Origin: Candidatus Omnitrophota bacterium
GTDB taxonomy: Bacteria > Omnitrophota > Gorgyraeia > Gygaellales > UBA12090
Reading direction: 5' to 3'
Assembly (NCBI GenBank): GCA_030674475.1
Contig: JAUSCZ010000014.1
Span: forward strand, 13,938-77,937
Length of the DNA stretch: 64,000 nucleotides
Shown here: piece after piece, positions 3,592-64,000 of the stretch
Layout of the letters: every line of letters starts with the position of its first letter
Position numbering within the stretch: position 1 is the first letter of the stretch
The notes under the pieces: model-generated
What the model saw: the letters and a program-made list of their open reading frames with translations, nothing else
Databases searched by the model: none
What the model was told of the DNA's origin: nothing
Made by a program: the position numbers and the translations under genes

Positions 3592-4077
3592 ATGTCCGGA
3601 AATTATAAAAAGAAAACCCAAGCCGTTGTTATCGGAAGCGACCACGGCGGATTTAGATTAAAAGAGAAGATTAAAAAATTCTTAGGAGATAAGGGTTATC
3701 AGATTAAGGATGTGGGCTGCTTTAACCAAGAGCCTTGCGATTATCCGGTATACGCGTATAAGGCGGCGAAAGAGGTATCTTTAAGGAATTTTTCTAAAGG
3801 TATTTTAATCTGTAAAAGCGGAATCGGGAATTCCATGGTGGCAAATAAACTCCCCGGGGTGCGGGCGGCTTTATGTTATAATCTAAAGGCGGCTAAGCTT
3901 TCCCGTCAGCATAACGACGCCAATGTTTTGGTTTTGGGGGCCTTATTTGTTAACGAGGCCCTAGCCAAGAGAATGGCAAGCCTTTGGCTGAAAACCGAAT
4001 TTGAGGGCGGAAGGCACTTAAGAAGGGTGAAGCAAATAAAAAAGATTGAGGATGAGATAAATCAAGATTATGCTTAA
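3592..4077 (+). CDS. rpiB: ribose-5-phosphate isomerase B
   Basis: VVIGSDHGGFRLKEKI... and the C/H catalytic region (GIGNSMVANK) of the RpiB/LacAB family. The neighbours (sua5, ywlE, glyA) follow the B. subtilis gene order. Confidence 0.9.
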   Translation: MSGNYKKKTQAVVIGSDHGGFRLKEKIKKFLGDKGYQIKDVGCFNQEPCDYPVYAYKAAKEVSLRNFSKGILICKSGIGNSMVANKLPGVRAALCYNLKAAKLSRQHNDANVLVLGALFVNEALAKRMASLWLKTEFEGGRHLRRVKQIKKIEDEINQDYA

Positions 4078-4432
4078 CGCCTTTCTGCTCATCAGGCAGG
4101 TGTCTCCGGAAGACCTGAAAAAACGGGGAGTGGAATGGCATAAGAAAAGTTTTGGAGAAATATTCTGGGTTTCCTTTGGCAGCCGTAGTAAAGAGAAAGA
4201 CATTAGAATAAAAGACTACTGGCTACCCGCATTGATTGGTATTTCTGAACTGTCAGTATTTCCGATCTTGATGACTCAAGGTTTTTGGATTTTTATTGGA
4301 GCATGGATAGGGATCAAAACAGCAAGTTCTTGGGGTGGATGGCAGAAAACCCGCACAGCCTATAATCGGTTTTTATTAGGGAATATTTTATCATTAGGAT
4401 TTTCGGCACTCATTGCTTGGATATGTTTTTAG
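4070..4432 (+). CDS. hypothetical small membrane protein (start uncertain)
   Basis: ORF with a hydrophobic C-terminal half (WIFIGAWIGIK...ALIAWICF). Overlaps the rpiB stop. No recognisable family. Confidence 0.3.
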   Translation: MLNAFLLIRQVSPEDLKKRGVEWHKKSFGEIFWVSFGSRSKEKDIRIKDYWLPALIGISELSVFPILMTQGFWIFIGAWIGIKTASSWGGWQKTRTAYNRFLLGNILSLGFSALIAWICF

Positions 4433-4602
4433 AATATATCATATCACTTTTCGTCAGTAGAACGCCGCAAAAGTGCTACTTTTGCGGCGTTGGGGTGAGG
4501 ATTGAGCACAAAATAGAGGGGATTTTCTGGACTTTTGCGACGTTGAAAAGAGAACCTATCTGTAAATTTTGCATTTTCGAGTAGAATTTGGTCAGAAAAA
4601 CC

Positions 4603-4649: not shown

Positions 4650-5057
4650 GTGGCAATTCCCAAAAAAGAAGAATACATTTTCTATCAGGGAGAGAAGTTT
4701 CAGATAGAGTTTTATTTTACTGAGACAGGAAAGATGCCCGCTAAAGAGTATTTGGAAGAGGTGGCTTTAGATGTAAAAGTAAAACTGGCCGCCCTGGTAA
4801 AATATATAGCAGAGCAGGGCAAGATATTCGATATAACAAAATTTAGAGCGGTAGATTCCCAGGAAAAAATCTACGAGTTTAAGCCTTGGCAATATCGGTT
4901 TTTTAATTTTTTCTATGAAGGAAGAAAAATAATCATTACTAATGGTTATATGAAAAAATCTCAAAAGGTAAACAGGAAAGATTTAGAAAGAGCCAGAGAT
5001 ATAAAAAAAGATTATACTTACAGAGTAAAAGGGGGTAACTATTATGGAGAAGAATAA
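4650..5057 (+). CDS. HigB/Gp49-like (RelE/ParE superfamily) toxin
   Basis: GTG start 5 nt after GAGGGGTG. Pattern ...KIYEFKPWQYRFFNFFYEGRKIIITNGYMKKSQK... matches phage Gp49-like/HigB toxins. Followed by an overlapping HTH antitoxin gene. Confidence 0.65.
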   Translation: MAIPKKEEYIFYQGEKFQIEFYFTETGKMPAKEYLEEVALDVKVKLAALVKYIAEQGKIFDITKFRAVDSQEKIYEFKPWQYRFFNFFYEGRKIIITNGYMKKSQKVNRKDLERARDIKKDYTYRVKGGNYYGEE

Positions 5058-28223: not shown

Positions 28224-29336
28224 AATATGAATATTTTAATTCTGGCCAATCATTTTAATCCCGGAGGGATATCCAGCTATATCTTAAATTTGGCTCAAGG
28301 ATTGGCGGTGAAAGGACATCAGGTATCTGTCGGTTCCGCGGGCGGGGAGTGGGTGGAGAGGCTTAAGAAAAATAATATAGAACATATTAATCTGCCTTTA
28401 AAAACCAAATCCATAATCAGCCCTAAGCTTTTGTTTTCTTATTTTATTTTAAAGAAGGAGTTAAGGGATAAACGGATTGATATAATCCACAGCCAGACCC
28501 GGGTTACCAGCGTTTTGGCTTATTGGTTATCCCGAAAGACCCTGGTTCCTTTTATTTCTACCGCCCATGGTTTTTTTAAGCCGCGCTGGGTGAGGTTAAG
28601 ATTTCCCTGTTGGGGGGATTTGGTTATTGCTATCTCAGAGGCAGTCAAAGAGCATTTAATCGCGGATTTTAAGGTTATTCCGAATAAGATACGATTGGTG
28701 CATAATGGAATTAGCCTGAGCAGAGAACAGATAAACACCTGCCTGCCGGCAGGCAGGGATAACAGAGAACAGATAAGGAAAGGGCTTGGATTAAAAGAGG
28801 GGCCGGTGGTGGGAATTATTGCCCGGCTTTCTGAGGTAAAAGGACATATATATTTGATTCAGGCAATGAAGAAGGTTATCGAAGAAATCCCGGAGGCCCA
28901 ACTTTTGAGCGTGGGAGACGGAGCGATAAAAAAAGAATTAGAGAATCTCGCGCGCAGTTTGGGTGTCTTAGGGCGGATAAGTTTTGTTCCCGCGGTCGCG
29001 GACACCCGGGAGGCGCTCTCGGTAATGGATGTCTTTGTGATGCCCTCTTTGCAGGAAGGATTGGGTCTATCTATAATGGAGGCGATGCTTTCCGGACTGG
29101 CGGTAATCGCTTCTTCAGTCGGAGGCATACCGTCTTTGATTAAAGACGGACACACTGGGATATTAGTCGCGCCTAAAGACGCGGAGGCTTTAGCTCAGGC
29201 GATAATCAGCCTGTTGAGGGATAATAAAAAGGCATTCGAATTAGGCAAAAATGCCCGGGAATTGATTGTAAAAGAATTTTCTTTAGAGAGAATGGTTCAG
29301 GAGACAGAAGAGGTTTATCAACAATGCCTAAGGTAA
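28224..29336 (+). CDS. GT4 glycosyltransferase (group 1) carrying a 14-aa in-frame repeat-derived insertion
   Basis: GT4 motifs (EGLGLSIMEAMLSGLAVIASSVGG). Internal ATG at 28224 (MNILILANHFNPGG) is preferred. The track ORF starts at 28158 inside the inverted repeat. Confidence 0.8.
   Translation, partial: NMNILILANHFNPGGISSYILNLAQGLAVKGHQVSVGSAGGEWVERLKKNNIEHINLPLKTKSIISPKLLFSYFILKKELRDKRIDIIHSQTRVTSVLAYWLSRKTLVPFISTAHGFFKPRWVRLRFPCWGDLVIAISEAVKEHLIADFKVIPNKIRLVHNGISLSREQINTCLPAGRDNREQIRKGLGLKEGPVVGIIARLSEVKGHIYLIQAMKKVIEEIPEAQLLSVGDGAIKKELENLARSLGVLGRISFVPAVADTREALSVMDVFVMPSLQEGLGLSIMEAMLSGLAVIASSVGGIPSLIKDGHTGILVAPKDAEALAQAIISLLRDNKKAFELGKNARELIVKEFSLERMVQETEEVYQQCLR
28735..28762. repeat. 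REP-like palindrome CCTGCCTGCCGGCAGGCAGG inserted in-frame inside the GT4 CDS
   Basis: 28-nt insert flanked by 14-nt direct repeats CAGAGAACAGATAA (28721-28734 and 28763-28776). Net +42 nt, read as REQI-NTCLPAGRDN-REQI. Confidence 0.75.
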
Positions 29337-30127
29337 TAAAATTCGGGTTAGTATTTCTTCTTTTTTCTTTCTTTAGCTTTTTAATCTGGCTTAGCACAGT
29401 GCTTAGCCATTATACCGCGCCTATCCTGATGTATCATTACATCAATAATGAGGAGCCGCTCAGAAGCAGGCTGGGGGTGAGTCCGGAGAGCTTTGAAAGG
29501 CAGATGCGTTTTTTAAGAGAGCGTAAATACAATATTGTTTCTCTGGAGGAGTTAACCGATTTGATAAAGAATAAAAAAAGGATACCTTCCGGGACCGTAG
29601 CCATCACCTTTGACGATGGTTATTTGGATAATTATACTAATGCCTATCCGGTGCTGAAAAAATACAATATCCCGGTAACTATTTTCGTGGTAATTAACCG
29701 GATAGGTAAGCATTTAGGAAATGACGATTATATGTCCTGGAGCCAGATAAGAGAGCTTTCCGAAAGCGGCCTGATTACTATCGGAAGCCATAGCATGAAT
29801 CATCCCAACCTAAGCGAAATCAGTTCAGAAGAGCAATTAAAAGAGGAAATCTTTGAGTCAAAAAAAATATTGGAAAAGGAATTGAATCAAGAGGTTAAAT
29901 TTTTCAGTTATCCTTTTGGCGGCCGGAGCCCTGAGGCGCGCCGGATTGTGTCTTTATCCGGCTATAAGGCAGCCGTGGGAACCAATTTTCCTAAAGGTTC
30001 TCCCGGCGACGACATCTACGCCTTGAAGAGACTGCGTATTTCAGAAAACTGCCGGAACCTGTTCATCTTCTGGGTAGAGGCATCCGGTTTTTATACCCAT
30101 ATTAAAGAACAGAGGGATGATTATTAA
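29324..30127 (+). CDS. polysaccharide deacetylase (NodB-homology) with N-terminal TM
   Basis: TFDDGY...NYT, H-x-x-x-H (GSHSMNHPNL) motifs. Confidence 0.8.
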   Translation: MPKVIKFGLVFLLFSFFSFLIWLSTVLSHYTAPILMYHYINNEEPLRSRLGVSPESFERQMRFLRERKYNIVSLEELTDLIKNKKRIPSGTVAITFDDGYLDNYTNAYPVLKKYNIPVTIFVVINRIGKHLGNDDYMSWSQIRELSESGLITIGSHSMNHPNLSEISSEEQLKEEIFESKKILEKELNQEVKFFSYPFGGRSPEARRIVSLSGYKAAVGTNFPKGSPGDDIYALKRLRISENCRNLFIFWVEASGFYTHIKEQRDDY

Positions 30128-30131
30128 ATGA

Positions 30132-30163
30132 GTAGGGGCGAACCTGCGTGTTCGCCCGAATAA
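30132..30163. repeat. GTAG-headed REP-like hairpin (GTAGGGGCGAAC-CTGCGT-GTTCGCCC-GAATAA)
   Basis: Near-identical copy at 42221-42252 (1-nt difference in the loop). Both sit directly after stop codons. Confidence 0.7.
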
Positions 30164-30463: not shown

Positions 30464-30853
30464 ATGAGAAAAGAAGTTTTAGATAATGAATTGGCTAAAA
30501 TAGAAAAGATTAGCAAAGAGTTTGATGTGAAAAAAGTATTTTTGTTTGGTTCGTGTCTCGAAAGCGTTGAGACGGCTAATGATATTGATATAGCAGTAGA
30601 GGGAATTAAGGCCAAGGACTTTTTTAAATACTATGGAAGAATCTCTATGGCTACAGATAATGAAGTTGACTTAGTTGATTTGGATGATATTAGAGAGCAT
30701 TTCCAGAAAAGAATTTTATCTAAAGGGAGGATTATATATGAAAGAGCAGTAAGAGCGATACAGGTGGATGATTTTATTTTAGATTCTTTGAAATTTCCAG
30801 TGGGTAAGATAGAAATCCTCCCCTTACCAAGGGGAGGCGGGGAGGGGTTATAA
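30464..30853 (+). CDS. minimal nucleotidyltransferase (MntA/Pol-beta superfamily), orphan
   Basis: FLFGSCLESVETANDIDIAV (GS-X9-DxD) motif. Its C-terminal 12 codons read into palindromic repeat copy 1. No HEPN partner follows. Confidence 0.6.
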   Translation: MRKEVLDNELAKIEKISKEFDVKKVFLFGSCLESVETANDIDIAVEGIKAKDFFKYYGRISMATDNEVDLVDLDDIREHFQKRILSKGRIIYERAVRAIQVDDFILDSLKFPVGKIEILPLPRGGGEGL

Positions 30854-31350
30854 CCAAGGCATTTAATAGACCAGAGCAAAAACTAAAGCGCAAGGCATTG
30901 AGACGCAATATGCCCTTAGCTGAAGTTATTTTATGGAGTAGATTAAAAGGCAAACAATTAGAAGGCTGTAAATTCAGAAGGCAGTATTTGAAATCCTCCC
31001 CTTAACAAGGGGAGGCGGGGTGGGGTCATTAAGCATTTTGTCATAGATTTTTATTCTACTGAATTAAGATTAGCCATAGAACTTGACGGAGAGTCTCACT
31101 ATGTCCAGGACGCGCCGTTGGCGGATAGGGAGAGACAAAACCAAATTAAGGTATTCGATGTTCAATTCCTGAGGTTTACGAACCAGGATATATATGAAAA
31201 TTTAGAAGGGGTATTATTAAAGATAGTTGAACAGATTAAACAAATTACCTCCCCTACCCCTCCTTGGTAAGGAGGGGATAAGAAATCTTTCTATTAACAA
31301 ATGAGGTAAGAAATCCTCCCCTTACCAAGGGGAGGCGGGGAGGGTAAGAA
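30813..31350. repeat. cluster of four ~40-bp palindromic repeats (AAATCCTCCCCTTACCAAGGGGAGGCGGGGAGGG), three direct and one inverted
   Basis: Copies at 30813-30853, 30991-31033, 31247-31286 (inverted) and 31311-31350. Copy 2 splits a DUF559 ORF and brings in a TAA stop. Confidence 0.75.
30868..31270 (+). pseudogene. DUF559 (Vsr-like endonuclease domain) gene disrupted by a palindromic repeat
   Basis: N-part RRNMPLAEVILWSRLKGKQLEGCKFRRQY. C-part VIDFYSTELRLAIELDGESHY...VQFLRFTNQDIYENLEGVL. The two parts match consecutive DUF559 blocks and are separated by the 43-nt repeat at 30991-31033. Confidence 0.65.
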
Positions 31351-31467
31351 AGTAGTTTTGTAGTCAACGAATGAATTTACTCACTCAAAACTTTAAAGGA
31401 CCTAAAATATGCCTGGCCAGGAGATTTTTTGGCTCATTAATGCTTAGATACATGGACTTAACTAAAA

Positions 31468-42220: not shown

Positions 42221-42283
42221 GTAGGGGCGAACCTGTGTGTTCGCCCGAATAACAGCGGGCAGACACGTAGGTCTGCCCCTACA
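42221..42283. repeat. nested REP-like element: GTAGGGGCGAAC-loop-GTTCGCCC hairpin plus GGGCAGAC-acgtag-GTCTGCCCCTAC hairpin
   Basis: First hairpin is the twin of 30132-30163. The whole unit is bracketed by GTAGGGGC...GCCCCTAC. Confidence 0.7.
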
Positions 42284-55647: not shown

Positions 55648-56478
55648 ATGTCTGACGCAAAATGTCCGGGGCAGAATCCCCAATATTGGAAGCCGGAAGA
55701 TGCCTTTGAGGTTAGCTGTCCTAATTGTAAGGAAATAGTTGAGTTTTTTAAGGATGAGCCCAAGAGGCGATGCCATAACTGTAAGCAAGAGGTAGTTAAT
55801 CCTAAGGTTGACTTTGGCTGCGCCCTTTGGTGCCCTAAGGCAGTTGACTGTATCGGTCAGGAGCGTTATCAACAATTATTGGCCGCGGCCAAGAGTCAGC
55901 CCAAGCCGGATAAATACCGGACTAAAAAAGACCTTCTGCTTTTTGAGATGGAAAAGTATTTCGGAGGTGATGAGCGCCGGATAAACCATGCCAGGAAGGT
56001 TTTGGAGTTTGCTGAGCAACTGCTTGAAAAAGAGCAGGCGGCTTGGGCTATGGGAAGCTCAACCCTGCCTACCGGCCAGGCAGGCACAGCCTGCCGGCCA
56101 GCCGATCCCCTGGTGGTTATTTCCGCGGCCATACTCCATGATATCGGAATACATAAGGCCCAAGAAAAATATAAAAGCAGTGCCGGGAATTACCAGGAGA
56201 TAGAGGGGCCTCCCATTGCCAGGGTTATTATGGAGAAGCTCCAGTTTAAAAAAGAGATAATTGACGAGGTCTGCGAGATTGTTGCCCATCATCATTCTCC
56301 GGGTAAGGTTGATACTCTTAATTTTAAAGTGCTTTATGACGCGGACTGGTTAGTCAATCTCAAGGATGAATTTGATACCAGTAGTAAAGAAAAACTGGCC
56401 AAAACAATTAATAAGGTATTTCTCACCTCTAGCGGGAAAGAATTAGCGAACCAGATTTATAGTAGGGGCGGGTTCTAA
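55648..56478 (+). CDS. zinc-ribbon plus HD-domain phosphohydrolase
   Basis: N-terminal CPxC...CxNC pairs. HD motifs H(N)H...ILHDIG...AHHHSP...YDADWL. Has an internal CCTGCCTACCGGCCAGGCAGG palindrome at 56066-56102. Confidence 0.65.
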   Translation: MSDAKCPGQNPQYWKPEDAFEVSCPNCKEIVEFFKDEPKRRCHNCKQEVVNPKVDFGCALWCPKAVDCIGQERYQQLLAAAKSQPKPDKYRTKKDLLLFEMEKYFGGDERRINHARKVLEFAEQLLEKEQAAWAMGSSTLPTGQAGTACRPADPLVVISAAILHDIGIHKAQEKYKSSAGNYQEIEGPPIARVIMEKLQFKKEIIDEVCEIVAHHHSPGKVDTLNFKVLYDADWLVNLKDEFDTSSKEKLAKTINKVFLTSSGKELANQIYSRGGF

Positions 56479-56490
56479 ACCCGCCCCTAC
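56462..56490. repeat. 29-nt GTAG-headed REP hairpin GTAGGG-GCGGGTT-cta-AACCCGC-CCCTAC
   Basis: Same 6+7+3+7+6 architecture as 60052-60080 and 63458-63486, with a fully covarying inner stem. Lies across the stop codon of the upstream gene. Confidence 0.8.
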
Positions 56491-56502
56491 CAAAGAACCA
56501 CG

Positions 56503-58467
56503 ATGAACAAAGAAGAGGCTTTGTGGGATTTTCTGGCCAGCCTTAAAACCTCGCTGAACAATGCCGCGGTTTATTTTAAAGACCATCCTGTTTTCTTGAA
56601 ATCCGCCGAAGACCTGAAAGCAAAAGCGGATTCACTCCTTGTCTTTCTTAGCCCCATAAAAATCGGCATCAGCCCGAATTCGCTCTTCATAGACGGTAAG
56701 AATTGGGAAAAGTCCGGCCTGTCTAAAGAATTAGCCTCATTTTTTCATTTCCGCAAAGTTGAAACAATAGAGATAAAAAGCGGTGTCAGCTTCAAGGAGC
56801 TGATTTTTTTTATTTCCAAGGTTTCTTTGGCTCCGAAAGAGATTCTTAAAGCAGGTGGAATAGAGGCTATTCTGGGAAAAGAAAATATGCCTTTTATCCT
56901 GGCGAAGGGATTGGATTATTCCCGGCTCTTAGGGATTCAGGGAAAGGAATACAAGGATATCTGGACCCATATGTTTCAGGAGGCCGCCGAGAAGGGGACT
57001 CCTCAGGATATATTCGGCTTAGCGGATAACTTTGGTAAGATTATAGAGAAATTTAAGGTCAATGATCTTTTAGAAAACAAGGATTTACGCGAAAACATCC
57101 ATAATTTTCTCAACTATTTAAAGGATGAAGACAGAGATAAATTCAACGCGTGTTCTAAGGAGATGGCCAATTTGATTTTGAGGGATAAGACTATATTTAA
57201 GGTTGATCAGTTGGGGACACTGCGGGTATTTTTTAAAGACTTAAGCGGTAATGAATTTAGTGATATTTTATGGGAAGCGGCGGTTTCGAATAAAGATTTT
57301 GACGCTCTTAGTTTTGAATTGCTATCCTCATTTTTGGATAAAAATCAGCATGAGCGCGCCGCTTCGTCATTGGCCGATAAAATCAAAACCAAAAATTCTC
57401 CGGAGGTTAATCCCCAGGCGGTAAGAAGGCTTAAGGATCTTTTCTTTGCCGCCAAGGATCAAGCGCACACTTACGACCCCTACCGTAAAAACCTGGAATT
57501 CTTATTTAAAAATACTTTTTTTGAAGAGGCCGGTTCTCGCGGCCTCGACTTAGAATCCACGCGCGCGAGTTATCAGTTTCTTATCCTTAATTCGCTTATA
57601 GGGGAAAAGAATAAAACAAAATTAAGCCTGCTTAAAGATTTGGTTAAGGAGGAGTTTGATTCCGTGATAAAAAACAAAGACACGGAGTTTTTAAGGCATT
57701 TTCTGGAAATCTGCGAGAGGAGGAGGAAGGAATCAAGTTTCTCCGGCATATTCGATCCGATAAAGAATGACGCCCTTTCATCTATTGAAAATATTATTTT
57801 TCAAGGCTCGCCTCGCGGGGAATTTGAAGGTTTCTTAAATCTGCTCAACAGAAGTTTTTTGGGCGCGCAGTATTACCTGAATAAAATGTTTAATGAAAAC
57901 AGAATAAGTCCCGGCATTTTGAAAATGTATTTTAAATTCTTTCCGGATACGCGGAATGTTTTCTACGACAATTTAAAGAAAAAGTCCCCCGACGCCGAAT
58001 TCTTAAAGATTCTAATTGATGCTGTCCAGGAAATCCATTCCGCTTTAAGTTTAGAGATATTAAGAAATATTTTTTCCTTCTCGCATAGCTTGATGAAGTT
58101 GGAAATACTTAAGGCGATGCGGGAGCTGCCGGAGCGGGATGAAAATTTCTTATTCTCCGTTCTTAGGGAAGAAAGTGTTTTCTTAAGGAAAGAAGCGCTT
58201 GGAGTTTTAGTATTTAAGGAAGGCCTGGGAAGCGAAGCCGGCCAAAGTAACACGGCGGCTGAAGCCTTAAAATTGCTTCTGGATATGCCGGATTCCTGGG
58301 GAAAGAAGAACAAGGTTTTAGAAGAGAATATTGATATTGTGGTTGAGGAGGGCCTGACCGAGCCGGCGAGGGATTTTCTGCTTGTCTTAAGCAGGAGGGG
58401 ATTCTTCTGGAATAAGAAGGTTAGGGAAAAGGCGAAGGCCGCTTTGGAGAGTTTATTCGGGGGATAG
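56503..58467 (+). CDS. large all-alpha hypothetical protein sharing a ~110-aa N-terminal domain with the downstream HD-GYP protein
   Basis: N-terminus (L..L..SL..A..Y...HP.F..S.E...L......S..ELS.FI) aligns with the N-terminus of ORF 58523. The remainder has no catalytic motifs and looks helical-repeat-like. Confidence 0.5.
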   Translation: MNKEEALWDFLASLKTSLNNAAVYFKDHPVFLKSAEDLKAKADSLLVFLSPIKIGISPNSLFIDGKNWEKSGLSKELASFFHFRKVETIEIKSGVSFKELIFFISKVSLAPKEILKAGGIEAILGKENMPFILAKGLDYSRLLGIQGKEYKDIWTHMFQEAAEKGTPQDIFGLADNFGKIIEKFKVNDLLENKDLRENIHNFLNYLKDEDRDKFNACSKEMANLILRDKTIFKVDQLGTLRVFFKDLSGNEFSDILWEAAVSNKDFDALSFELLSSFLDKNQHERAASSLADKIKTKNSPEVNPQAVRRLKDLFFAAKDQAHTYDPYRKNLEFLFKNTFFEEAGSRGLDLESTRASYQFLILNSLIGEKNKTKLSLLKDLVKEEFDSVIKNKDTEFLRHFLEICERRRKESSFSGIFDPIKNDALSSIENIIFQGSPRGEFEGFLNLLNRSFLGAQYYLNKMFNENRISPGILKMYFKFFPDTRNVFYDNLKKKSPDAEFLKILIDAVQEIHSALSLEILRNIFSFSHSLMKLEILKAMRELPERDENFLFSVLREESVFLRKEALGVLVFKEGLGSEAGQSNTAAEALKLLLDMPDSWGKKNKVLEENIDIVVEEGLTEPARDFLLVLSRRGFFWNKKVREKAKAALESLFGG

Positions 58468-58522
58468 GCCGGCACATCCTCCGCCTGAATAAGCGGGGCA
58501 GGCTTTCAAGGAAGGGTTAGGC

Positions 58523-59863
58523 ATGGCAGAAGCCATTGAAAATTCATTAAGAAGTTTGATTTCATCTTTGCAGTCAGCCAAGATATACCCTCTAGAACAT
58601 CCTAAGTTTAAGGAGTCTTTGGAGAACGCGCATAACAGTCTGCGGAATCTTCTGGGGGAGAGAAACGAGCTGGTAATCGGAATTATCGGGGAGGAGCTGG
58701 CTTTTGAAAAAGAGATATTCTTTGATTTAAGTAAGTCGGTTAAGCCTTTTATCCAGTATTTAAAGGAAAGAGGGATTGAGAGGATTGCCTTTACCCGCGG
58801 CATTACTAAAGAAGAATTGTCAGCCTTCATCATATTTTTAATAACTCCTAAGGATGAGATCGGCCCCGGCGTCCAGGAGTATTTGTTGAATAAAGGAATA
58901 AAGAATATAGTCATCGGTAAAATAAAGGCCGGGGATAACTCTTTAAGAAAAGAAGCCCTGGATTCGGTAAATTATTTAAGGCAGTATGAAGATTCTTTAA
59001 GCAAGATTTCTGTTTCTTTGGATGCTATTGTAAAAAATGAGGCATTTGATTATCCGCAGTTAAAATATACGCTGGGTAATATGATGGAGAATTTATTCAA
59101 GAGTTATCAGGAATTCCTGAAGCTTGCCGCCTTGAAAAGGCACGATATAGGCACCTTTGTCCATCTTTTGAATACGGCGGTATTGTCTATGTATTTTTCT
59201 TTCCGGCTCGGCTTTAATAAAGACGATGTGTTGAATATCGGCATGGCCGCGTTATTCCATGATATCGGCAAGATTTACGTATCCGGGCAGTTAATCAAAA
59301 GCCCGGATAAGCTTAGCGATGAAGAATTTGAGATGATGAAAAGCCATACCGAGCTGGGCTCGGATATACTTTTAAGGCATACCCGGCAATTAGGAGTCCT
59401 TCCGGCAATAGTCGCCTTTGAGCATCATCTCAGGTATGACCTTAGGGGTTACCCTAAGCTTTATTTCGCCTCCAGGCCGCATATTGCTTCCTTGATTGTT
59501 TCGCTCTGCGATGTCTACGATGCCCTTAACGCCAGAAGAAGCTATAAGAAAAGTTACCCCCCGGAGTTTATTCATAGTCTCATGCTCAAAGAAAAAGGCA
59601 AGATGTTTGAACCTGAACTTTTGGAGAAGCTTTTTATGATAATGGGCGTGTGGCCGGTAGGCACGATTGTTTATTTGACTGATAAAAGCGTGGCCATAGT
59701 CCGGGAAGAGAATGAAGATGATATATTCTCTCCCAAAGTAGAGGTAGTTTTTCCTTTTGATAAAAGCGGGCCCCTGGACTTAAGAATGAAGAAAGAAGAG
59801 TTAAAAATAGAATCCGCCCTTGACGCGCAAGGCGAAGGAAAAAAGTATTATCATCTGGTTTGA
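58523..59863 (+). CDS. HD-GYP domain phosphodiesterase with a novel N-terminal domain
   Basis: HD (LFHDIGK) and GYP (HHLRYDLRGYPK) motifs. N-terminal ~110 aa is paralogous to ORF 56503. Confidence 0.75.
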   Translation: MAEAIENSLRSLISSLQSAKIYPLEHPKFKESLENAHNSLRNLLGERNELVIGIIGEELAFEKEIFFDLSKSVKPFIQYLKERGIERIAFTRGITKEELSAFIIFLITPKDEIGPGVQEYLLNKGIKNIVIGKIKAGDNSLRKEALDSVNYLRQYEDSLSKISVSLDAIVKNEAFDYPQLKYTLGNMMENLFKSYQEFLKLAALKRHDIGTFVHLLNTAVLSMYFSFRLGFNKDDVLNIGMAALFHDIGKIYVSGQLIKSPDKLSDEEFEMMKSHTELGSDILLRHTRQLGVLPAIVAFEHHLRYDLRGYPKLYFASRPHIASLIVSLCDVYDALNARRSYKKSYPPEFIHSLMLKEKGKMFEPELLEKLFMIMGVWPVGTIVYLTDKSVAIVREENEDDIFSPKVEVVFPFDKSGPLDLRMKKEELKIESALDAQGEGKKYYHLV

Positions 59864-60051
59864 CATGAACAAAAAGGGGACAGGCTGATTTTATTCTGAT
59901 TGTTCCCATATAGTAATTTGTAGCGGTTGCCGCCTGCCTGCCGGCAGGTAAGGCAACTAGTGGTGAGCGCAGTCGAACCACGATATCATAAGGTCAGTGG
60001 ACACTGACCCCTACACGCTGACCGCTACAGACTGATTCTTGTAGATTGAAT

Positions 60052-60080
60052 GTAGGGAACGGTTTGAAACCGTTCCCTAC
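60052..60080. repeat. 29-nt GTAG-headed REP hairpin GTAGGG-AACGGTT-tga-AACCGTT-CCCTAC
   Basis: Sits within a 320-bp intergenic region packed with palindromes (59933-59955 family-1 copy, 59990-60008 GGTCAG hairpin). Confidence 0.8.
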
Positions 60081-60186: not shown

Positions 60187-61263
60187 ATGGCAATGTTCAA
60201 GAAAATATTTTTTACGCTATTACCTTTAATTTTAGTTTTTAGCAGCGATCCCGCCTTTTGCGCCATCACCACTGTGGATACCAAGCGTGACTGGAAAGCC
60301 CAGAATTTTATCGCTAATCAAATCAAGGGAATTGGCTTGGTAGATTCCTACCAGGAGGATGGAGAAAACCGAAGTTATGTTTACGACAATGCCTTGGCCG
60401 CTATGGCTTGTATGGCTGAGGGAAATTTTGGTTTGGCTAAAGAAATCCTGGACACCTTATCTAATGAGGTAAATCATAGTTCGTATGAGGTTCCTTATGA
60501 AAGCTATCTTTATTCTGGCACGAACGGGGCTGGATATGGAATTTCTTACGCCGGAAATTCCGCCTGGCTGCTCCAGGCCTTAAATATCTACCAGAAGTTA
60601 AGAAGCGATAAGACTTACTATGCTGTTCAGAAAAAATTGGCTGATTTTTTATTGTCCCTGCAGGATTCAAGCGATGGAGGAATAAAAGGAAGCAAGAGCG
60701 ATACCTGGAAAAGCACCGAACATAATATCATCGCCTATTGCGCGATCAGGAATTTCGGCAGGCTGAATAATGTGTCCAGCTACACCACTAGCGCTGAGAA
60801 AATAAAGACTTTTCTGACTGGCTCAAGCATATGGACCGGGGAGAGGTTTAACCGGGGTAAGAATGATTCAGCCAAGGTGGTGGATACTCAGGCTTTAGGA
60901 GTATTGCTTTTGGGGAGCAGTTACTCCAAAGCCTTAATCTGGGCGGAGAAAAATCTTAAACTTTCCAAAACCTACAATTACCAGACGGTAACCGGATTTG
61001 ACTTTGACAGTAATCTGGATACGGTTTGGCTGGAGGGAACCCTGCAGATGGCCCTGTCTTTTTATAAAAGCAATAATACTTCTAACGGCGATACCTACTA
61101 CAATGAAGCGCTCAAGACCGTGCAAAGCGACGGTTCGCTAATTTTAGCCACTAATAAAGGCTCAGCCAGCGATTATTGGACTTTACAGGTCTGGCGGGCA
61201 ATTGCTCCCACTAGTTGGCTTATCTTTTATTATCTTAAGTTCAGCCCTCTGGTTTTATATTAA
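60187..61263 (+). CDS. secreted protein, possibly an (alpha/alpha)6-toroid glycoside-hydrolase-like fold
   Basis: Signal peptide (start possibly ATG 60193 after AAGGAG). Recurrent helical hairpin motifs (YDNALAAMA, SAWLLQAL, WLEGTLQMALSF). Family assignment is weak. Confidence 0.35.
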   Translation: MAMFKKIFFTLLPLILVFSSDPAFCAITTVDTKRDWKAQNFIANQIKGIGLVDSYQEDGENRSYVYDNALAAMACMAEGNFGLAKEILDTLSNEVNHSSYEVPYESYLYSGTNGAGYGISYAGNSAWLLQALNIYQKLRSDKTYYAVQKKLADFLLSLQDSSDGGIKGSKSDTWKSTEHNIIAYCAIRNFGRLNNVSSYTTSAEKIKTFLTGSSIWTGERFNRGKNDSAKVVDTQALGVLLLGSSYSKALIWAEKNLKLSKTYNYQTVTGFDFDSNLDTVWLEGTLQMALSFYKSNNTSNGDTYYNEALKTVQSDGSLILATNKGSASDYWTLQVWRAIAPTSWLIFYYLKFSPLVLY

Positions 61264-63457: not shown

Positions 63458-63486
63458 GTAGGGACAGAACATTGTTCTGTCCCTAC
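63458..63486. repeat. 29-nt GTAG-headed REP hairpin GTAGGG-ACAGAAC-att-GTTCTGT-CCCTAC
   Basis: Lies between amtB and glnK. Third member of the identical-architecture family. Confidence 0.8.
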
Positions 63487-63895: not shown

Positions 63896-64000
63896 GTAGG
63901 TTAACTAAGGGTAATGCGTCAGTTAATGGGGGCGCTGGTAGCCGCAGGCTTCAGCCTGCGTCCTAAGGCGCAAGCTAAAGCTTGCGACTACCATAGAATT

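Follow-up and report, generated by a model that had tools for sequence, protein, structure and literature searches.

Introduction

Repetitive extragenic palindromic elements (REPs) are short hairpin-forming repeats, and the concept linking them to REP-associated tyrosine transposases (RAYTs) reportedly goes back to work of Nunvar and colleagues in 2010. In E. coli, REPs stabilise mRNA and, if located near stop codons, affect translation. To our knowledge, binding and cleavage of a single-stranded DNA (ssDNA) hairpin by a RAYT has been carried out for E. coli TnpA_REP only. Di Nocera, De Gregorio and Rocco (2013, PMC3733652) defined a GTAG-tagged REP superfamily, whose members are located downstream of open reading frames (ORFs), form dimers, can be intragenic and occur in the PVC (Planctomycetes, Verrucomicrobia and Chlamydiae) superphylum. 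Quentin et al. (2018, BMC Genomics 19:475, PMC6006769) described "double foot" REPs, with GT[AG]G at the 5' and C[TC]AC at the 3' end, as well as canonical long REPs with three consecutive G–C pairs at the stem base. Both types are cognate to TnpA_REP/RAYT subclass 2.4, which corresponds to RAYT group 4 of Bertels et al. (2017) and whose genes carry in-frame REPs between the HuH and Tyr motifs; for some REP-bearing genomes the same study suspected loss of tnpA_REP. In the literature, we found no biochemistry for subclass 2.4 proteins, and a full-text search with REP sequence strings returned nothing relevant. In this study, we analysed a 64-kb stretch of contig JAUSCZ010000014.1 from a Candidatus Omnitrophota bacterium, referred to as the window, in which an earlier note, made from the letters of the DNA, had pointed out three 29-nt palindromes opening with GTAGGG and closing with CCCTAC (elements 1 to 3). 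They represent an already described class of REPs, now in an uncultivated Omnitrophota lineage, and raise no new biological question. Probably, they are REPs of the subclass 2.4 type, whose GTAG-footed ssDNA hairpins are recognised by a RAYT from another part of the genome.

Results

All three palindromes are present at exactly the coordinates claimed for them (Table 1). In the 64-kb window the pattern GTAGGG-N10-40-CCCTAC matches these elements and no other site, giving three matches against 0.05 expected, and 0 of 100 dinucleotide shuffles reached three. With GTAG at the 5' and CTAC at the 3' end, the frame GTAGGG…CCCTAC falls within the published GT[AG]G / C[TC]AC definition of the double foot. 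Element 1 additionally has three G–C pairs at the stem base (GTAG-GGG), as do the hairpins starting at 30132, 42221 and 42257. Folded as ssDNA, elements 1 to 3 each form a 13-bp stem with free energies of -13.5 to -16.5 kcal/mol (element 1: -16.5 kcal/mol) and z-scores of -6.9 to -8.9. They are single hairpins and not inverted dimers of the kind known as REP doublets forming hairpins (REPINs) or bacterial interspersed mosaic elements (BIMEs).

Two details of the structure proposed in the earlier note had to be revised. The 3-nt loop does not hold for elements 2 and 3, where the outer loop bases pair as well (T-G-A and A-T-T), and in element 1 a single C/A mismatch occupies this position. The "complete compensatory covariation" of the inner stem was correct as far as perfect pairing within each copy is concerned, but it was overstated, since the three copies are distinct REP variants and not orthologous versions of one site. 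Compensated change proper is confined to comparisons of orthologous copies among relatives, as with GTAGGG…CCCTAC versus GTAGAG…CTCTAC.

Table 1. GTAG-headed hairpins of the window, with positions counted from its first nucleotide; lower-case letters in the last column mark loop or central bases
Feature	Positions	Strand	Sequence, structure and location
Element 1 (double-foot REP)	56462-56490	either	GTAGGGGCGGGTTCTAAACCCGCCCCTAC; variant GCGGGTT-cta-AACCCGC; reads GTAG plus hairpin on both strands
Element 2 (double-foot REP)	60052-60080	either	GTAGGGAACGGTTTGAAACCGTTCCCTAC; perfect 14+1+14 palindrome, interior AACGGTTT-g-AAACCGTT
Element 3 (double-foot REP)	63458-63486	either	GTAGGGACAGAACATTGTTCTGTCCCTAC; perfect 14+1+14 palindrome, interior ACAGAACA-t-TGTTCTGT
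Canonical long REP	30132-30157	+	GTAG followed by GGGCGAAC-ctgcgt-GTTCGCCC; begins 5 nt past the stop of ORF 29324-30127
Canonical long REP, GCGAAC arm	42221-42246	+	left half of inverted dimer, in the gap that separates clpP from the gene after it
Canonical long REP, GCAGAC arm	42257-42282	-	GTAG-GGGCAGAC-ctacgt-GTCTGCCC; right half of inverted dimer
Short GTAG-headed hairpin	59992-60014	-	GTAGG-GGTCAGT-gtcc-ACTGACC; 38 nt upstream of element 2
GTAG-headed hairpin	63938-63960	+	GTAGC-CGCAGGC-ttca-GCCTGCG; left half of inverted dimer downstream of glnB
GTAG-headed hairpin	63969-63991	-	GTAGT-CGCAAGC-ttta-GCTTGCG; right half of the dimer downstream of glnB
Possible further member	4457-4491	+	GTAG, then perfect 14-bp stem and 3-nt loop (AACGCCGCAAAAGT-gct-ACTTTTGCGGCGTT), -17.2 kcal/mol; downstream of ORF 4070-4432

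The same class of palindrome is associated with RAYT genes in other organisms, in six loci with the canonical long REP and in eight with the double-foot type. For the latter, metagenome contigs of the Joint Genome Institute (JGI) were scanned with GTAGGGGC-N12/13-GCCCCTAC, which gave at least 138 matches in at least 120 loci. Among the matches listed, 101 of 138 (73%) are palindromic through the entire interior, for which the chance is approximately 0.02% (2e-4) per match, and more than 60 different interiors occur. Recurrent variants include GGGTTTnAAACCC, carried by at least 10 contigs, from which element 1 is one or two substitutions away. The top recurrent ORF family in the double-foot loci listed was a Y1 transposase, found as nine ORFs in eight loci and tied with one other cluster. 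In seven of these nine ORFs the palindrome lies in frame at codons ~75-140. Three loci have an extra copy at the gene edge or immediately beyond it; in L157 and L227 this copy is of the same variant, in L238 of a different one. L157 contains two adjacent transposase genes, each with its own cognate variant inside and upstream. These transposases score 28-35 bits with Pfam Y1_Tnp (cut-off 23), conserve HuH, the WQR region and the Y---NP tyrosine motif, and would be expected to act on double-foot REPs. A profile search found more than 8000 relatives of them, many of which are named "REP element-mobilizing transposase RayT" by JGI. As a separate observation, L198 displays a tandem amplification at 1380-2010, consisting of five units of ~105-135 nt which each end in GTAGGGGCGGGTCTCAGACCCGCCCCTAC.

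The second line of evidence comes from the canonical long REP. The earlier note had described the copies at 30132 and 42221 as a related subfamily differing by 1 nt, and they indeed differ by one C/T exchange in the loop. Representative genomes from more than ten phyla contain the exact 26-mer GTAGGGGCGAACCTGYGTGTTCGCCC of this subfamily, in at least 120 stretches altogether. Its hosts include Gammaproteobacteria, Chloroflexota, Bacteroidota, Oscillospiraceae, Nitrospirota and Desulfobacterota, and further WOR-3, TA06, Kiritimatiellia, Phycisphaerae and Acidobacteriota. Species specificity, in contrast, is the property usually ascribed to REPs. The 26-mer is often followed by a short spacer and GGGCAGACAC..GGTCTGCCCCTAC, which is the same dimer as at 42221-42282 of the window; its usual partner is GGGCAGAC…GTCTGCCCCTAC, and the GCGAAC/GCAGAC pairing recurs across phyla and within RAYT ORFs. 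ORFs of all 26-mer loci were clustered to find recurrent neighbour families, and the same Y1 transposase, of ~160-220 amino acids and with the motifs RSIRLKxYDYS…MPNHxHxI…WQRNYYEHIIR…YIxxNP, was one of the three ORF families with the widest recurrence among them. Among the at least 120 stretches listed, the REP dimer lies inside the Y1-transposase ORF in all six loci having that ORF. Wherever both halves of the gene are present, the REPs are in frame after the HuH motif, encoding VGADLxVCP and GEHTGSPL. Several gammaproteobacterial loci, L035, L110 and L117 among them, show arrays of partial REPs in tandem after the 26-mer.

Within the window, the tag itself is strongly enriched. A systematic scan returned GTAG as the commonest tetramer before perfect hairpins, and the tag heads a perfect stem of 7 bp or more in 12 strand-instances over the whole window against 0.36 in shuffles (shuffle maximum 3). 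Nine window hairpins have GTAG 0-2 nt from such a stem, mostly of 7-9 bp, with the 14-bp stem at 4457 as the longest. Members of the superfamily typically number in the tens to hundreds within one genome; the 64 kb hold ~10 GTAG hairpins, with the 26-mer REP present twice. The hairpin at 59992-60014 forms a small REP cluster with element 2. The second hairpin near 42221, which the earlier note had taken to be nested, is in fact a partner REP that lies beside it in inverted orientation, on the minus strand. The resulting dimer at 42221-42282 is REPIN/BIME-like and, across a spacer of 10 nt, folds into a single long hairpin (-20.5 kcal/mol), and the dimer at 63938-63991, with an 8-nt spacer, likewise folds as a single hairpin (-18.9 kcal/mol).

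These counts, both far above the shuffled controls, bear directly on the idea that the elements are chance palindromes, or operators of a dimeric regulator which share a GTAGGG half-site. Dyad symmetry is typical of operators and three copies within 7 kb would suit such a regulator, but the interiors are wholly different between copies, hundreds of unrelated metagenome contigs display the identical architecture, and the sites are found downstream of genes rather than at promoters. This explanation is therefore barely conceivable. Operators were also rejected as a candidate on account of the 29-nt size of the elements and their tie to Y1 transposases elsewhere. An assignment as integron attC sites, which share "conserved ends, variable paired interior", was ruled out by the 29-nt size, the lack of integrase and cassette structure and, again, the linkage to Y1 transposases.

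A local repeat family of a different kind was observed at 30812-31349, in the 614-nt non-coding gap 30854-31467. It consists of four copies, three direct and one inverted (31245-31279), of a ~40-nt unit GAAATCCTCCCCTTACCAAGGGGAGGCGGGGAGGGG, each with a perfect 9-bp hairpin CCTCCCCTT-acc-AAGGGGAGG and no GTAG tag.

Close strains are present in groundwater metagenomes (SRR13727527, ERZ27254756/59 and PRJNA292723). Close relatives, given here by their locus numbers, were compared at the junction between the HD-domain gene (ORF 55648-56478), the end of which overlaps element 1, and the gene following it. The window carries GTAGGGGCGGGTTctaAACCCGCCCCTAC at this junction. L122 (86% protein identity) carries GTAGGGGCTGTTcgcgAACAGCCCCTAC, the TAG of which is the stop codon, and L127 (92%) has a degenerate GCGGGT half-copy followed by the L122 variant. 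In L128 the copy is chimeric and imperfect, and the reading frame continues through it; L131 shows a pair of half-copies in tandem (~1630-1680) ahead of GTAGAGGCTGTTcgcgAACAGCCTCTAC, and L129, L130 and L123 lack a GTAG element at this junction. In the GTAGAGGCTGTTcgcgAACAGCCTCTAC copy of L131, the foot, invariant among the window elements, shows a compensated G to A and C to T exchange (GTAGAG/CTCTAC). The stop codon of the HD gene is supplied by the REP, in L122 by the TAG of GTAG (4684-4687) and in the window by a TAA in the hairpin loop (56476-56478). Consequently to this arrangement, the C-termini of the HD proteins are REP-encoded and vary between strains, reading …IYG, …IYSRGGF, …IYGRGGS or …LYVGAGLESTPTDDD directly before the stop.

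Similar turnover is found at the other sites. L125 and L126 lack element 3 although they share the P-II protein exactly and their glnB is 97% identical in DNA, and the dimer 63938-63991 is missing in L124-L126. In L122, the amtB-glnB spacer is only 4 nt long and lacks element 3, and no element lies behind the second HD gene; element 2 is absent from L122 as well. The elements are thus gained, lost and exchanged at preferred sites on a strain-to-genus time scale. Such turnover at the same sites fits mobile or recombinogenic DNA and not conserved regulatory structures. At the same intergenic sites, some Omnitrophota relatives contain palindromic repeats without GTAG (L125 at ~95-175, L126 at ~60-140 and ~540-690, L129 at 2225-2260), for example GGGTCGATGGCCGATGG…CCATAGACCATCGACCC and runs of tatagtctatagttaatag.

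The HD-domain ORF holds a further observation at 56040-56105, an in-frame nested insert AAWAMGS[STLPTGQAG]TACRPA built from alternating CCTGCC/GGCAGG arms. Its outer layer of ~15 amino acids is present in 4 of 18 orthologues and the inner 7 amino acids in the window only; the insert is an intragenic palindromic expansion. We also considered element 1 as the interrupter of a coupled stop/start overlap. Its in-silico excision gives a protein ending in …QIYTKEPR with the gene end ATGA, and orthologues without element 1 terminate right after …IY(L/I)xx; the restored ATGA overlap may be a coincidence, and this candidate was not relied on.

The symmetry of the double-foot variants extends through the centre. 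At metagenome loci L132-L251, the central tetranucleotide of the 28-nt variants is self-complementary (CATG, CGCG, GGCC, AATT etc.) in 29 of 41 distinct sequences against 6% expected, and among 19 distinct 29-nt variants, 15 show a symmetry that only the single central base interrupts. Since this symmetry crosses the would-be loop, where no pairing is needed, selection on base-pairing alone is no explanation, and the published suggestion of a central deletion in a REP dimer does not predict it. A strand-symmetric copying step in REP genesis would fit the centre symmetry, the swapping of variants at hot spots, the arrays of half-copies and the compensated exchange in the foot. Possible routes are a RAYT-nicked hairpin priming snap-back synthesis, or hairpin-templated conversion. 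We put this forward as a tentative and rather doubtful proposal, together with the related one that a REP embedded in a RAYT ORF accounts for the 26-mer across phyla: horizontal transfer of the gene would then seed the same REP in new phyla, which would explain its verbatim recurrence.

Centre symmetry is also among the points in favour of orphan or self-propagating palindromes, that is REP-like elements which are no longer, or never were, mobilised by a RAYT in this organism and whose symmetry is kept by replication-linked processes. Such processes could be slippage, recombination among adjacent copies, or quasi-palindrome correction templated by the hairpin. The tandem half-copies at the L131 hot spot and the tandem array in L198 would agree with this, as would the lack of a RAYT in the 64-kb window and the REP genomes with suspected tnpA_REP loss noted by Quentin et al. 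(PMC6006769). However, in other organisms this palindrome class and RAYT genes go closely together, with cognate variants that are gene-specific, and elements arise at new sites in close strains. In addition, a conserved GTAG foot with a free interior is to be expected from enzyme recognition, but not from template correction alone. We therefore consider orphan palindromes unlikely.

The window has 44.9% G+C and nearly all of its genes on the plus strand. Exact matches of its proteins, MDO8747879 among others, assign it to a metagenome-assembled genome (MAG) of Candidatus Omnitrophota, on a contig of 101,596 nt. The earlier note had located all copies at gene 3' ends or stop codons; in agreement with this, all GTAG hairpins lie between co-directional ORFs and are confined to the ~9.5% intergenic fraction of the window, save for the overlap of element 1 with the last 17 nt of the HD-domain ORF. 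A gap of 12 nt separates the end of element 1 from the start codon that follows (ATG at 56503), element 2 is located between ORFs 58523-59863 and 60187-61263, and element 3 in the amtB-glnB spacer. One short-read contig from Logan (L001) equals 56462-60080 of the window, from the first base of element 1 to the last base of element 2; the perfect palindromes of these two elements act as assembly break points.

From their position, the elements could be RNA structures that evolved in place and serve in termination, protection of mRNA 3' ends or the tuning of translational coupling, with GTAGGG/CCCTAC as part of an RNA motif. All copies are located downstream of ORFs and between co-directional genes, the hairpins are very stable, element 1 holds the stop codon of the upstream gene shortly ahead of the next start, and E. 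coli REPs are known for mRNA stabilisation and for effects on translation near stop codons. In contrast, the 20 terminator-like sites of the window include no GTAG hairpin, and no T tail follows any of these hairpins, the sequences following elements 1 to 3 being caaagaac, tggcggag and agaaacct; the reading as intrinsic (Rho-independent) terminators was ruled out by this lack of T tails. Rfam gave 0 matches in the whole window at the gathering threshold, and the same sites are empty or swapped in strains with 97% identical flanking genes. Furthermore, the sequences are strand-symmetric and also occur within protein-coding RAYT genes, which argues for an origin at the DNA level with RNA effects as secondary. 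An origin as RNA elements is therefore very unlikely.

Discussion

We propose that elements 1 to 3 are REPs of the subclass 2.4 type that depend on a RAYT encoded elsewhere in the genome. The earlier note had read them as GTAG REPs linked to RAYTs of the IS200/IS605-like Y1 kind, and had tied this family interpretation to the existence of further copies with complementary stems. Further complementary copies were found, and the reading is supported by the REPs inside transposase ORFs, by the double-foot palindromes in metagenomes and by the classification of Quentin et al. (2018, PMC6006769). Judged by sequence, the window elements agree with the definitions of both the double-foot and the canonical long type.

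Several results weigh against this assignment. In the 64-kb window no RAYT/Y1 gene was found, as tblastn with six RAYT-like ORFs returned REP-encoded peptides only. No Omnitrophota name occurs among the named hits of the RAYT profile search, and peptides encoded by elements 1 to 3 or by the L122 variant are absent from the best 120 of the more than 8000 RAYT homologues. Elements 2 and 3 have no second copy among the sequences compared, and they depart in part from the published stem base in having GG followed by an A–T pair and not GGG. The transposases of the double-foot loci find their best NCBIfam match in REP_Tyr_transpos with 61-63 bits, which is under the equivalog cut-off of 80. We infer that a RAYT is present and acts in this genome.

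By analogy to E. coli TnpA_REP and the IS200/IS605 transposases, the palindrome would fold while the DNA is single-stranded, for instance at the replication fork, and a monomeric HuH/Tyr enzyme from elsewhere in the genome would recognise GTAG at the foot of the hairpin. Cleavage and rejoining of ssDNA by this enzyme could then lead to copying, excision or replacement of the short elements, and new copies would preferentially be placed beside existing ones, in non-coding gaps downstream of genes. In a double-foot element, each of the two strands would offer a GTAG guide together with a hairpin. The stem interior is expected to vary with the RAYT lineage, since the cognate hairpin differs from one lineage to the next, leaving only the GTAG(GG) foot in common. 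Once located between co-transcribed genes, the elements would also constitute stable RNA hairpins and may secondarily affect mRNA 3' ends or translation. Such an effect on the RNA level would be most plausible for element 1, which holds the stop codon of the upstream gene.

The present analysis extends the described REP/RAYT system of subclass 2.4 and its double-foot REPs to uncultivated Omnitrophota. At strain resolution, it displays palindromes that turn over quickly at fixed intergenic hot spots and that can alter a gene's final codons together with its stop, as for ORF 55648-56478. In practical terms, perfect palindromes of this kind break short-read assemblies, as in contig L001, and give rise to spurious repeated peptides (VGA…PL/APT) in ORF calls. 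Only two angles are mildly new, namely the symmetry through the centre and the identity of one REP across phyla.

Comparison with known systems

REPINs (Bertels and Rainey, 2011) and the BIMEs of E. coli resemble the pairs at 42221-42282 and 63938-63991, which are inverted REPs with a short spacer that fold as one long hairpin; the 29-nt elements of the window, in contrast, are single hairpins without a spacer. The REPs of Pseudomonas and E. coli are imperfect, bulged palindromes and largely species-specific, whereas the 26-mer of the window is identical across phyla. The transposases associated with these palindromes share HuH, WQR and Y---NP as well as hits to Y1_Tnp and REP_Tyr_transpos with the E. 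coli TnpA_REP–REP complex (Messing et al., 2012, PDB 4ER8) and with IS200/IS605 TnpA, but they differ in a variable, REP-encoded insert between HuH and Tyr.

With the GTAG-tagged superfamily (PMC3733652), the window elements have in common GTAG at the foot of a 20-40-nt stem-loop, a position downstream of coding sequences, between ORFs that run in one direction, dimers of opposite orientation, several families per genome, occasional in-frame intragenic copies and the occurrence in the PVC superphylum. In that paper, however, the tag is described as unpaired and present at one end, whereas here it stands at both ends and is base-paired (GTAGGG/CCCTAC).

Compared to the double-foot REPs of subclass 2.4, the window differs in having no cognate RAYT within its 64 kb, in the GGA, not GGG, that follows GTAG in elements 2 and 3, and in holding three different variants within 7 kb. 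Omnitrophota are also not among the phyla highlighted in PMC6006769, which are Cyanobacteria, Bacteroidetes and scattered others. Common to both are the G–C pairs at the stem base, the co-occurrence with canonical long REPs and the scatter over many phyla. The placement of the palindrome class in frame within RAYT genes, between the HuH and Tyr motifs, is likewise shared and was reproduced here in other organisms.

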